The position numbers and the translations under genes are program-made. Below, one piece after another: positions 1 through 13,441 of a stretch of DNA of 32,000 nucleotides; positions within the stretch are counted from its first letter, which is position 1, and each line of letters begins with the position of its first letter. The notes beneath the pieces were generated by a model. That model ran no database searches and was not told the DNA's origin. It saw nothing but the letters and a program-made list of their open reading frames with translations. Origin of the DNA: an uncultured Desulfatiglans sp. (GTDB lineage Bacteria > Desulfobacterota > DSM-4660 > Desulfatiglandales > Desulfatiglandaceae); the NCBI GenBank assembly GCA_900498135.1, contig LR026961.1, forward strand, positions 836,373 to 868,372. The letters are read 5' to 3'.

Positions 1-106
1 GGCCGAGATCCTTTGAAATGGGATCTTCGGCCCGGCGTCGAAACGCGGCGACGAGACCTTTTCCGGATGGACACCATTCAACCCTGGAGGAAGGAGGAGG
101 GACACC

Positions 107-3760: not shown

Positions 3761-4073
3761 GACCTTCTCCCGCCTTCAGACTGGGACCAAGATGAACACC
3801 GGAAGCAAATCGCTCACCAGGAAACAAGAGGCCCTTTAGTCGGTGAGATCATCAGGACATACCCTACGACGGCTTCAGCAACCCTTCCAGAGACAAAGCA
3901 ATCCCCCGGGCCTTACTGCGTGACGCAAGTTCTTGAAGGATCAGGGGTTCGGATTTGCAGCGGCAAAGAAACCATCATTTCATCAATGAAATTAGCACCC
4001 ATATCGGCACAAGTCAACCGACCGTCGTTGGATCGCACCTGACGCATGGGATTCGCCATACGCCCAAGCAACT

Positions 4074-4883
4074 CTAGAGAAGAAATTTTTCCGGATCAGC
4101 CGCTATCTTTTGAAGAGATTTGCCTATTTCCTGCATGTGCAAACCGTGCCCTATCCGATGGTCCACCGTCACGCTAAACAAAGCGACCTGTTTTTCTCTC
4201 ACATGACCGTTTTCCAGAAAAAGATGTGGAACCGGTGAGTGTGCATGTATTCTAACGGGCACATTGCCAATCACCGGCTTAATGAAAATGAAAGTGGAAG
4301 GATTTTTAAACGTGTGATTTAAAAAGAAAATATTTGAAACCAGCCCCTTTTCAAACCCCATCTCAAACAACTTCTTCTCACCGATCAATCGAGTAAATCC
4401 CAATCTGATCATCATCCCCATGATCTGCACATTCAATTTTTTGGGTGGCGTTGAGAATTCTTTTGCCTTTGAGATCATCGTACGTTTCAGCTCTCGTTGA
4501 ATCGTCTCCAATGACTTCAACTGGCAGTTCTCCATGATTAAAGGGGCTAGGACCTCATTACTCCCCGGCAGCAAAAATCCATTCGCAATATGAACGCCTT
4601 CCTTCTGGTAAACCTTGTTCCCGAAAACTATTTGATTGGCAATTGGATTTTCAGAAATAACAATCGACAACATTTTATTGTATATTGCATGAAGACTGAT
4701 AGATTTTCCTGACTTTTTAAATTCATCTATCAGTTTATTAAAAGGATCAACATCAATCGGGTACATAATCGTCGCATAAGGATCCGGTGAATTATACAAC
4801 ATATTCATCATTATCATCCGGAAAATGCCGATTTCTTCCGATCTCAATCTTCGCATCTGCAGCGTTTTTTTCATGATAATCAT
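4074..4883 (-). CDS. Stand-alone 2-oxoacid dehydrogenase E2-type acyltransferase catalytic-domain protein (CAT-like fold)
   Basis: 269-aa ORF. The C-terminus VTVDHRIGHGLHMQEIGKSLQKIAADPEKFLL matches the DHRxxDG active-site region and C-terminal end of the E2 catalytic domain (Asp replaced by His). There is no lipoyl or E3-binding domain. The likely true start is the in-frame ATG at 4874 (MKKTLQ), about 10 nt downstream of a GAGGAG. The gene is strongly AT-rich compared with its neighbours. Confidence 0.6.
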   Translation of the reverse strand: MIIMKKTLQMRRLRSEEIGIFRMIMMNMLYNSPDPYATIMYPIDVDPFNKLIDEFKKSGKSISLHAIYNKMLSIVISENPIANQIVFGNKVYQKEGVHIANGFLLPGSNEVLAPLIMENCQLKSLETIQRELKRTMISKAKEFSTPPKKLNVQIMGMMIRLGFTRLIGEKKLFEMGFEKGLVSNIFFLNHTFKNPSTFIFIKPVIGNVPVRIHAHSPVPHLFLENGHVREKQVALFSVTVDHRIGHGLHMQEIGKSLQKIAADPEKFLL

Positions 4884-4923
4884 ACTCCTCAGAAAATCAC
4901 CAATGGATATACCCCATTACTGT

Positions 4924-5146
4924 CCATCCGGAAACACAATCCCGGCAGAACCCGGTTTCCAATCCGGAAATGAAGATTTTTCGTCTCACGGTGTGCGTGC
5001 TCGGTCCCACCCCTGCTGTGCGGATCCCGTTTTAACCAATACCCATTAAATCAAGCGTTTACAAGGCAACGACCAGGTGATCGCCGCACAAGCAAACGTG
5101 CAGATTGCCGCCGAGATTGGCCAAAAAACCCTTTCCGGATGGAAAC
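4924..5146 (+). repeat. Modular intergenic repeat, locus A (plus orientation)
   Basis: Contains three parts. First, the 5' boxes ccatccggaaa and ggtttccaatccggaaatg. Second, a GC-rich module (gctcggtcccacccctgctgtgcgg). Third, the core aatcaagcgttt...gcaaacgtgcagattgccgccgagattggccaaaaaaccctttccggatggaaac. It aligns by eye with loci B, C and D. Confidence 0.8.
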
Positions 5147-5629
5147 TGCATTTTCGCCAGAAAATGAAGCTCATCCAGAGTATTGAGGAGCCAATTCGTG
5201 GATCCTATACAAACGACGCGCCCTCCGCTTGATTTAAAAGGACAGGAAATCCATAAGATACAGATAACCCCTCCTTTCCTACATCCCGTTCCTAAACGAT
5301 ACCACCAGGATAAGAATCCACAGAAAAACACATACGCCGCTTCGGCGCCGTTGAGGGCCGGAAAGGGAACCCCCATTCCCGCTTTTCCTTGGGAAATAGT
5401 CCAGTGACAGGAAAAAGGGTCTCTGAAATGGCCGCAATGCACCTTGATTTAAACCTTTCAAGGCATATTTTATTTATTAGATGTCGGAAACCTTCGCAGT
5501 TCGCCAGGAGACAAGGGCCGGCTCTATACAGAAAGAGACCCGGGCCAAAGCCTGTTTTCGGCAGAGAGGCGGCTCCTGCTCCAATCGATCATTGGTTTCC
5601 ACCTGCAAAAGATGGCCCATGACGACCAC

Positions 5630-5884
5630 GTTTGCAATCCGGAAATGGTCTTTTTGGCCAATCTCGGCGGCAATCTGCACGTTTGCTTGTGCGCGACCAC
5701 CAGGTCGCCTCCGCGCAAACGCTTGATTTCCTTGATATTGGCCAAACCGGGACCCGCCGCGAAGCGGTGGGACTGAGCGCCCGAAGGGTGTAAAGGAACC
5801 GGGACCCGCAGGGGTAGGACTGCACACGCGCAGCGTGTAAAGAAAAATCCTCATTTCCGCATTGGAAACAGAGTCCTACCGCGA
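5630..5884 (-). repeat. Modular intergenic repeat, locus B (inverted orientation)
   Basis: The reverse complement reads ...gtttccaatgcggaaatgaggatttttctttacacgct..., then two GC-rich modules (cagtcctacccctgcgggtcccggtt and ctcagtcccaccgcttcgcggcgggtcccggtttggcc), then the core aatcaagcgtttgcgcggaggcgacctggtggtcgcgcacaagcaaacgtgcagattgccgccgagattggccaaaaagaccatttccggattgcaaac. Confidence 0.8.
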
Positions 5885-5910
5885 AATCATACGAATTAGA
5901 AAGGGATCTC

Positions 5911-6486
5911 ATGTTGAAAAAGATGGCGGTCGGCGCCTATCAGGCAAACTGCTACATCCTCGGATGTAAGAAAACGTTTCAAGGCGCAGTGATCGATCCA
6001 GGGGACGAGGTTTTCAGGATTACAAAAGAAATTTCGCAGAGCGGCCTGCAAATTACTGCGATTCTTCTGACCCACGGACATTTCGACCACACCGGAGGGG
6101 CAAAGGAGCTCAAAGAGATCACCGGCGCCCCCGTCCTGATCCACCCCGCGGACGCACCTGCGCTCGAATTCCCTCCTGACGGCCCGCTCCGTGAAGGTCA
6201 ACAGATAGGGGTGGGCACGTTCACGCTTTCCGTAATCCATACCCCCGGTCATTCACCGGGCGGGGTGTGTTTTCTGGCCCCCGGCGCCGTTTTCACCGGC
6301 GACACCCTTTTTGCGGGCTCCATCGGCCGCACCGACTTCCCCGGCGGGGATTACGCCGGCTTGATCCGTGGCGTCACCGAAAAAATCTTCCCCTTAGGGG
6401 ATGATCTGCGGGTGTATCCGGGCCACGGCCCCCAAACCACCATCGCCCAGGAAAAACGTTCCAACCCCTTTTTCAGAAGCGCATGA
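5911..6486 (+). CDS. MBL-fold metallo-hydrolase (hydroxyacylglutathione hydrolase/GloB-like)
   Basis: 191-aa ORF with the THGHFDHTGG (HxHxDH) metal-binding motif, a later HTPGHSPG, and a typical N-terminus (GAYQANCYILG). Confidence 0.85.
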   Translation: MLKKMAVGAYQANCYILGCKKTFQGAVIDPGDEVFRITKEISQSGLQITAILLTHGHFDHTGGAKELKEITGAPVLIHPADAPALEFPPDGPLREGQQIGVGTFTLSVIHTPGHSPGGVCFLAPGAVFTGDTLFAGSIGRTDFPGGDYAGLIRGVTEKIFPLGDDLRVYPGHGPQTTIAQEKRSNPFFRSA

Positions 6487-10894: not shown

Positions 10895-11265
10895 GTTTCC
10901 ATCCGGAAATGATTTCCCGGTAGAACCCAGTTTCCAATCCGGAAATGAGGACTTTTCTTCACACGCTACGCCTACTCAGTCCCACCGCTTGGCGGCGGGT
11001 CCCGGTTTGGCCCATACTAAAGGAATCAAGCGTTTGCGCGGAGGCGACCTGCAGGTCGCCGCACAAGCAAACGTGCAGATTGACGCCGAGATTGGCCAAA
11101 AAGACCATTTCCAGCAAAACCCGGTTTCCAATCCGGAAATGAGGATTTTTGGCCAATCTCAAGGAAATCAAGCGTTTGCGCGGAGGCGACCTGCAGGTCG
11201 CCGCACAAGCAAACGTGCAGATTGACGCCGAGATTGGCCAAAAAGACCATTTCCGGATGGAAACC
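10895..11265 (+). repeat. Modular intergenic repeat, locus C (two tandem units)
   Basis: Two direct copies share an identical 89-nt stretch (11024-11112 and 11166-11254, 142-bp period). The second unit (11123-11265) is a compact nested palindrome. The first unit carries an extra GC-rich module (ctcagtcccaccgcttggcggcgggtcccggtttggcc). Confidence 0.9.
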
Positions 11266-12243: not shown

Positions 12244-12331
12244 AGATCATATGAAACGGACTGGTCCTCCGTTTTGGATATCTTGGCTGGGGTGTATTTT
12301 ACACCCCGGACCAGCCCGTTTTATATGATCT
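12244..12331. terminator. Long imperfect inverted repeat between convergent genes (candidate bidirectional terminator or structured element)
   Basis: The arms are agatcatatgaaacgg+actggtcc (12244-12267) and ggaccag+cccgttttatatgatct (12308-12331). They pair with one G:T and one bulge. A central hairpin ggggtgt-atttt-acacccc sits between them. The right arm overlaps the stop codon of the CGGC gene. No classical U-tract. Confidence 0.4.
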
Positions 12332-13228: not shown

Positions 13229-13441
13229 GACGCCGTGCGTGCTCAGTCCCACCGCTTCGAGGCGGGTCCCGGTTCCTCCGCGCCTTTCGGTGCTCACTCC
13301 CACCCCTGCAGGGTGGATTTCAATTTGGCCAAGCTTTAGGAAATCAAGCGTTTGCGCGGAGGCGACCTGGCGGCCGCCGAACAGGCAAACGTGAAGATTG
13401 ACGCCGATATTGACCAAAAATGACCCTTTCCGAATGGAAAC
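13229..13441 (+). repeat. Modular intergenic repeat, locus D
   Basis: Has two GC-rich modules (gctcagtcccaccgcttcgaggcgggtcccggtt and gctcactcccacccctgcagggtgg). These are followed by the core aatcaagcgtttgcgcggaggcgacctggcggccgccgaacaggcaaacgtgaagattgacgccgatattgaccaaaaatgaccctttccgaatggaaac. A related 5' box (tccatccggaattgaggaa) sits further upstream at 13056-13074. Confidence 0.8.

Follow-up and report, generated by a model that had tools for sequence, protein, structure and literature searches.

The window (the whole stretch of DNA analysed here, 32,000 nucleotides long) carries copies of a dispersed repeat family, whose parts and positions are collected in Table 1. The principal copy is a composite element, and its distal part had been described in the first-pass annotation as a 143-nt nested palindrome at 11123-11265. 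As a single strand this unit does fold into one continuous rod, as that annotation proposed, with an energy of -86.1 kcal/mol on the + strand against -39.7 +/- 4.0 for 200 shuffles (z = -11.6) and of -80.7 kcal/mol on the - strand (z = -10.7), far below shuffles on both strands. The nested pairings lie where they had been placed: the outer arms (11123-11141 and 11248-11265, with one bulged A), the middle arms (11146-11160 and 11230-11244, 15/15 matches), the inner arms (CGTTTGC and GCAAACG) and the 16-nt palindrome at the tip (11186-11201). The outer arms do pair with each other, but they are not the two ends of the element. The left arm is an inner, bulged copy resembling a terminal inverted repeat (TIR) and pairs with the right TIR, whose true partner is an outer-left repeat further upstream and not this inner copy with its one extra A. 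The span is likewise corrected by one base: 11123-11264 is the rod, and 11265 belongs to the right target-site duplication (TSD).

Table 1. Members of the repeat family in the window, their parts, and loci of the divergent subfamily in other genomes
Feature	Position	Strand	Remarks
Left target-site duplication CAGTAA	10889-10894		5/6 positions match the right copy CAATAA
Composite 370-nt MITE: 228-nt element plus 142-nt tandem rod duplication	10895-11264	+	From boundaries and sister-species comparison
Left module, ~35 nt, with its own small hairpin; outer-left TIR GTTTCCATCCGGAAATG at 10895-10911	10895-10929	+	
Inner TIR-like copy (CCAATCC, one extra A), start of rod copy 1	10930-10951	+	
52-nt GC-rich two-hairpin module	10956-11007	+	Ends +/-2 nt; from size classes 176/228/280
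Rest of rod copy 1; right TIR degraded at duplication joint 11104-11122	11008-11122	+	
Rod copy 2, 142 nt, the unit of the first-pass annotation; right TIR 11247-11264	11123-11264	+	
Right target-site duplication CAATAA	11265-11270		
Family copy, right part only (cut by the window start); right TIR 57-74	1-74	+	
Older 228-class copy, degenerate module, without clean TSD	4920-5146	+	
280-class copy, two modules, degraded outer-left TIR, TGGT tip variant	5631-5895	-	
5'-truncated copy: two modules, rod and right TIR	13230-13441	+	
Divergent subfamily loci	L129-L142		Genomes G175, G109, G143, G059, G116, G160, G046, G071 and others

The repeat is dispersed, as first described, and is not confined to this region. 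A whole-genome BLASTN search with the unit, which the first-pass annotation had proposed, finds 449 separate loci in the single contig of 4,801,105 bp, hundreds of copies spread genome-wide, and the comparison with relatives adds further copies and empty sites with target-site duplications. Full-length rods are present at 147 of the 449 loci, distributed 74/73 over the two strands. Their identities run from ~70% to 100%, with 27 copies at 98% or more, and the rod matches total ~49 kb, or 1.0% of the genome.

A conserved segment of ~35 nt precedes almost every rod on its 5' side, as seen in the flanks of 105 full-length rods, and a left module like the one at 10895-10929 also stands 5' of the rod in most copies and in other genera. 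The segment starts with GTnTCCATCCGGAAATG, the exact reverse complement of the rod's right end. Distances between end motifs fall into sharp classes of 140, 176, 192, 228, 244 and 280, that is, 140 plus multiples of 36 and 52, the 140 class being the rod alone in a shifted register. The mobile unit therefore joins the left module to the rod and includes up to two 52-nt modules. Its length is 176 nt, and not that of the 143-nt palindrome that had been taken for the compact mobile unit: a ~35-nt left hairpin module with the true outer TIR GTnTCCATCCGGAAATG is followed by the 142-nt rod, which is bounded by the inner TIR-like copy and the right TIR CATTTCCGGATGGAAAC. In the longer forms the 52-nt modules, of which an element has 0, 1 or 2 (or more), are inserted directly after the inner TIR-like copy, and variants arise via tandem gain of this module or of the rod itself. 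Among 130 complete elements, which possess left module, inner TIR-like copy and right TIR alike, 68 measure 176 nt, 19 measure 228 nt and four measure 280 nt; in most of this set the 17 nt at the outer-left end are reverse-complementary to the 17 nt at the right end.

The GC-rich hairpin modules that had earlier been seen as insertions in a mosaic are real, with a unit length of 52 nt. Genome-wide there are 91 copies, all in MITE contexts. Each comprises two hairpins whose stems covary among copies (ACGC/GCGT versus ACCC/GGGT). The module folds better on the - strand than on the + strand, both as RNA (-26.1 versus -19.2 kcal/mol) and as DNA (-12.7 versus -10.2), and presents C(GNA)G triloops there, including GCGAAGC, a polarity opposite to that of the rod. 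UNCG tetraloops were considered as an RNA signature of the module and discarded, the pairing register giving 3-nt TNC loops on the + strand and GNA loops on the better-folding - strand.

The element is non-coding, any one frame being open in at most 14 of 42 family members. A scan of one canonical copy for promoters and terminators gave no promoter-like or terminator-like pattern. Rfam returned no match at gathering score over the window, and with E values up to 5 the element itself drew only two chance microRNA matches (E ~2). In the canonical copy (L007:1466-1641), the midpoint of the 176-nt element coincides exactly with a match to the IHF consensus WATCAANNNNTTR, reading AATCAAGCGTTTG, and the same IHF-like motif occurs in the window at 11166-11178.

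Insertion has left its trace in the flanks. Exact direct repeats of 6 bp border 30 of the 130 complete elements and repeats of 7 bp border 10; with one mismatch allowed, a 6-bp repeat is found at 46/130, and shuffled flanks give a mean of 0.57 exact 6-bp matches. The duplicated hexamer has 23% GC against 58% for the genome and follows the consensus T-A-W-N-T-A (TAWNTA). A sister species (G001) of the same genus, ~90-95% identical in DNA, also has hundreds of element copies in a draft of 110 contigs, and 20 sites occupied there were set against the present genome. At one of them (L058) the 176-nt element of the sister species stands between two copies of AAGAGG and the present genome has a single AAGAGG; at another (L060) (G)TAACTC is duplicated around the element and the present genome keeps one target copy, empty. 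These two clean empty sites show that the elements insert and duplicate their target. At a third site occupied in the sister species (L063), the counterpart at 4691723-4691732 already reads GAATTC followed by GTTTCCATCC, a TIR-like start; an extra 25 nt lies next to the element in the sister species, and the event was more complex than a simple insertion.

A full-length insertion sequence (IS) with the same ends resides in the genome. The search for the same end motifs spaced 0.6-4 kb apart gives three elements of 1693-1698 nt, at genome positions 2892412, 1500164 and 2157346, whose terminal 15 nt are identical to those of the MITE. The first is flanked on both sides by TAAATA, its TSD. An ORF of 455 aa is intact in two of the three and interrupted by a stop codon in the third. 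Its product scores 438.9 bits against NCBIfam NF033593 (ISNCY family transposase; cut-off 325) and also matches Pfam DDE_Tnp_1 and DUF772. The partner thus resembles ISNCY elements in its length of 1.69-1.71 kb, in its 6-7-bp duplication and in a transposase above the NF033593 cut-off; presumably it belongs to the ISDol1 group, which in ISfinder is characterised by a length of 1.6-1.9 kb and a 6-7-bp duplication. Relatives of the transposase were found in 5/40 related genomes searched (6/41 in another count), in elements of 1685-1706 nt, and in two metagenome genomes labelled Desulfatiglandaceae and Deltaproteobacteria. It was not found in the 110 draft contigs of the sister species despite the hundreds of element copies there; IS copies often go unassembled in draft genomes.

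The ends of IS and MITE agree genome by genome in three genomes, left end with outer-left and right end with right. The bases concerned are lineage-specific: CCGGAAA in the present genome, CCAGAAA in G018, and CCACGAA on the left with ATTTATGG on the right in G010. As sequence evidence goes, this joint change of the ends is the strongest support for the putative IS-MITE partnership short of an assay. The idea that the rod is itself internal IS sequence was dropped, since only its last ~40 nt resemble the right end of the IS and none of the eight IS copies examined contains the conserved core blocks. Two IS copies, L042 (genome 2157346-2159043) and L044, are bordered by hexamers that are mutually reverse-complementary (TAGGTA/TACCTA and TAGTTA/TAACTA) and are not direct repeats. 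The genome also contains Y1 transposase ORFs at C1:4251903, 4559060 and 3688539, together with three weaker sites; the Y1_Tnp matches number six, and three of them are 154-aa IS200-like Y1 ORFs at near-equal scores.

A tyrosine transposase (HUH, RAYT/IS200-like) acting on single-stranded DNA, as in REP/REPIN-type elements, would be another way to move a hairpin of this kind. The six Y1_Tnp matches would provide such an enzyme, the hairpin signal of the rod is strand-specific (see below), and the C(GNA)G triloops on the - strand of the 52-nt module are of a form typical of stable DNA mini-hairpins. Single-strand transposition by HUH enzymes produces no true TIRs, 6-7-bp target duplications or clean empty sites, all of which are seen here; a DDE-type IS with the same ends is present, and the elements have no replication-strand bias. 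Because of the TIRs and TSDs the family is not placed with REP/REPIN, and this origin is scarcely credible.

The reading we prefer, with a probability of about 0.88, is that the palindrome is the core of a MITE (miniature inverted-repeat transposable element) with an ISNCY partner, that it is transposed in trans, and that its rod is kept by selection on transposing lineages. A MITE with terminal inverted repeats had been one of three options offered by the first-pass annotation, and it is the one borne out by the TIRs, the 6-7-bp TSDs, the empty sites and the partner IS. The element has the marks of a MITE with defined ends, target and partner IS. It appears to represent a new and very abundant family of a kind that is itself ordinary; a full-text literature search, in which coverage of subscription journals is slight, found no description of it. 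As the common ends and the TSD suggest, the 455-aa DDE transposase would bind the ends that IS and MITE share and would move the element in trans, by cutting or copying it and inserting it at a staggered cut.

The rod reaches far beyond this genome. By BLASTN, 17 of the 24 other genera in the same taxonomic family contain full-length rods, with identities of 73-87%. A covariance model, for which 37 rods from 13 genomes were used, has full-length matches in 30 of 151 genomes sampled evenly from the phylum, which represent at least 19 further families, and the rod is present in at least 21 families of the one phylum. The model scores 117-144 bits on sense copies versus 23-35 bits on the antisense strand. 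Many distant copies keep the whole layout, namely a 6-bp TSD, a left hairpin of ~32 nt, four bases and the rod, and their left hairpin consists of the left TIR abutting the right TIR. A divergent AT-rich subfamily has unrelated ends (e.g., GAGACCTTTGAAAAATG) and is without the left module, and retains the rod with its conserved blocks. Its duplications are of 4-5 bp (GGGTT, AGGGA, GGATT, CTAG); together with the unrelated ends they point to a different transposase, and the subfamily is probably moved by an IS5-like enzyme. A plasmid collection and viral contigs yielded no match to the element or to the conserved core pattern.

Covariation is present across genera. Standard pairs fill 98.2% of the pair cells in the 37-sequence alignment, versus 91.7% in shuffles. 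Two-sided changes occur in 18 of 45 pairs, versus 8.0 +/- 1.6 in shuffles (0/500 reach 18) and two to ten pairs in slid controls with partners displaced by one to three columns; the copies that enter these counts are mutually related. Single pairs show three or more pair types, e.g., G-C 13, A-U 10 and U-A 10. The unpaired blocks hardly vary (CAAGGAAATCAAG in the 5' arm; CGCACAAG and GATTGACGC in the 3' arm), and the rod is therefore not a simple fold-back. The structure favours one strand. The RNAalifold consensus energy is -47.3 kcal/mol on the + strand versus -25.3 on the - strand, and oppositions of G·T versus A·C stand at 114 to 16 in the family alignment and at 143 to 13 in the phylum alignment, the latter fitted to the model. 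The 52-nt module is an exception, folding better on the opposite strand, and the strand signal therefore differs between parts of the element. In these alignments the internal hairpin is better conserved across the phylum than the presumed transposase-binding ends and covaries on one strand.

The selection on structure that the first-pass annotation sought in the arms is visible between lineages only, as compensatory changes across genera. When 135 resident rods are compared with their own consensus, they show 165 G·T and 181 A·C oppositions and 281 other mismatches, and paired and unpaired sites have changed about equally (5.5% versus 6.3%). Orientation is random: elements in tandem contexts are sense to neighbouring genes in 24 cases and antisense in 28 (crude ORF-based gene calls), and relative to the replication strand they divide 65:65. 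By their symmetric decay, equal change at paired and unpaired sites and random orientation, the inserted copies look neutral, and the structure seems to be kept only along lineages still making new copies. A tip variant at a second locus in the window, with kept arms and the loop TGGT instead of TGCA, had been read as a hint of selection. The variant itself is confirmed (5693-5708, - strand); alone it is no evidence of selection, because the resident copies in this genome decay symmetrically.

These data also bear on the view that the main role of the element is that of a cis-acting RNA like ERIC or REP, whose long double-stranded RNA rods, made by co-transcription, alter mRNA processing or stability and are retained by the host, a role that can coexist with mobility. 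Strand-specific covariation and unpaired blocks conserved phylum-wide speak for it. So does the enrichment in promoter-bearing divergent spacers, which hold 40 of 103 elements versus ~20% of spacers genome-wide, an enrichment that also fits the AT-rich target. Orthologous rods of the two species are 94.4% identical versus 90.1% at third codon positions, a figure that would favour host retention but is biased because the loci were chosen for high identity. Against such a role stand the random orientation relative to neighbouring genes and the resident changes given above, which are those that neutral decay predicts. Neighbouring genes are not conserved either: around rods in low-copy genomes, where they encode a response regulator, BacA, a zinc-ribbon protein and an outer-membrane efflux protein, no conserved neighbour was found. 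A host-retained cis-acting RNA is thus a rather unlikely main role.

History alone, in place of selection, might have produced the pattern. Recent horizontal spread, with each subfamily re-created as a fold-back of one arm, would agree with the near-perfect palindrome of the rod in this genome and with the resemblance of its last ~40 nt to the right end of the IS; MITEs often arise from one IS end, and kinship among the copies inflates covariation counts. Fold-back would, however, erase the asymmetric unpaired blocks (e.g., CAAGGAAATCAAG opposite GATTGACGCC), which are kept in all lineages. Co-resident transposases share only 49-67% protein identity, yet the rods share 74-87% at the DNA level. 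The excess of G·T over A·C, from 7:1 to 11:1, is unexpected from either fold-back or neutral change, and it is absent within one genome. We regard a purely historical origin of the pattern as distinctly unlikely.

Nor is the duplex itself a good candidate for what is conserved. A cruciform, or a double-stranded site bound by a protein such as a nucleoid protein or IHF, used by the host for chromosome organisation, would account for the consensus match AATCAAGCGTTTG at the exact centre of the 176-nt element, and long palindromes can extrude cruciforms. Neither a cruciform nor a duplex predicts a bias of G·T over A·C, yet the bias is strong, and the resident copies decay neutrally. The divergent subfamily has lost the IHF-like match, one core base of which covaries with its partner (T-A 22, A-T 13), two facts that also weaken an IHF site as the cause of the core conservation. 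A role as a DNA site is accordingly very improbable.

On the preferred reading of a MITE moved by its ISNCY partner, the rod would be retained through selection on the lineages that keep transposing and not on each resident copy. It would act as a single strand of the element's + sense, RNA being likelier than single-stranded DNA. With G·U pairs tolerated and no bias towards either replication strand, RNA is the simplest reading; the lack of a promoter-like signal in the canonical copy, the absence of orientation bias and the better fold of the 52-nt module on the other strand argue against an RNA form. Transcribed copies would form ~60 bp of double-stranded RNA, and by analogy with Correia and ERIC RNase III could cut them, affecting neighbouring mRNAs. 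More tentatively, and with the odds against it, the 142-nt rod could have a function of its own as a strand-specific structured nucleic acid, most probably RNA, with MITEs as its vehicle in at least 21 families. TIRs and TSD would then change, from 6-7 bp with the left module to 4-5 bp, including CTAG, without it, and the rod would stay; a rod kept through changes of ends and TSD length amounts to a 'cargo' more conserved than the transposase-recognition ends. Such a rod could either improve the transposition substrate in cis or make an RNA with a role of its own.

Bacterial MITEs moved in trans by a resident IS include Correia/NEMIS in Neisseria, Chunjie in Geobacter uraniireducens and Nezha in cyanobacteria. 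The present family is like them in being short and non-coding, with TIRs, a TSD of fixed length, hundreds of copies, insertion polymorphism between close species and a full-length IS with the same ends. It differs in its doubled left end, where an outer TIR in its own hairpin precedes the inner TIR-like copy, and in a core that is more conserved than the TIRs across the phylum, with strand-specific covariation. The ERIC/Correia-like label of the first-pass annotation holds for functional analogy and not for kinship, the TSD being 6-7 bp and not TA and the host phylum a different one. ERIC (127 bp) is comparable in size and likewise an imperfect palindrome, with cross-genus conservation and longer forms made by insertions at fixed internal sites, and an RNA hairpin has been proposed as its active form. 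Compared by description, it belongs to a different phylum; the present family has identified TIRs, a 6-7-bp TSD and a partner transposase. Correia of Neisseria is a MITE with a long rod fold and a central IHF-like motif (in the present family, a match to the consensus) and lies near gene starts. Its RNA hairpins are RNase III substrates, a plausible model for transcribed copies here, whereas it duplicates TA, as against 6-7 bp at TAWNTA, and its TIR sequences are unrelated. BOX of Streptococcus pneumoniae (boxA-boxB(n)-boxC) is similarly modular, with a variable number of an internal hairpin unit of ~50 nt between fixed ends, but the sequences are unrelated and BOX is without identified matching IS ends, which this family has. 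The family is thus not a member of ERIC, Correia or BOX, which are analogues in shape, conservation or modularity.

The family accounts for many of the intergenic palindromes, start-codon 'boxes' and species-to-species length differences in the window, and such repeats should no longer be taken for separate regulatory signals. In a rough genome-wide gene map, the terminal box does not keep to a fixed place 31-46 nt upstream of start codons. With the partner IS, the ends and the TAWNTA target named, it can be annotated and masked in a phylum represented mostly by draft metagenome genomes, whose assemblies are broken by repeats of this kind. If the conservation and the one-strand covariation reflect function, the rod would offer a rare and testable example of selection acting on a structured element through its transposon lineage.

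Copies within the window differ between the two species in the number of their parts. In the syntenic region of the sister species a single stretch of 107 nt (C8:75093-75199) aligns to both rods of the composite element, and that species therefore has one rod there; the second rod would be either a 142-nt tandem duplication in the present genome or a loss in the sister species. The orthologue of the copy at 13230-13441 is ~100 nt longer in the sister species, and the number of 52-nt modules differs between the two. Elsewhere in the window, the copies at 4920-5146 and 5631-5895 face each other in inverted orientation, with ~480 bp between them that hold no convincing ORF. The first of them adjoins an AT-rich gene at 4074-4883, and the GC content of positions 4001-6000 is low (0.47 versus ~0.60). 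An 88-nt three-part inverted repeat lies between convergent genes at 12245-12330. Its counterpart in the sister species is ~570 nt of different sequence that includes a MITE copy (L049, G001:C8:76189-76758). This difference was considered as an empty site and rejected as such, the two species simply differing in content there, and the spacer is, by this comparison, one that appears to turn over quickly.
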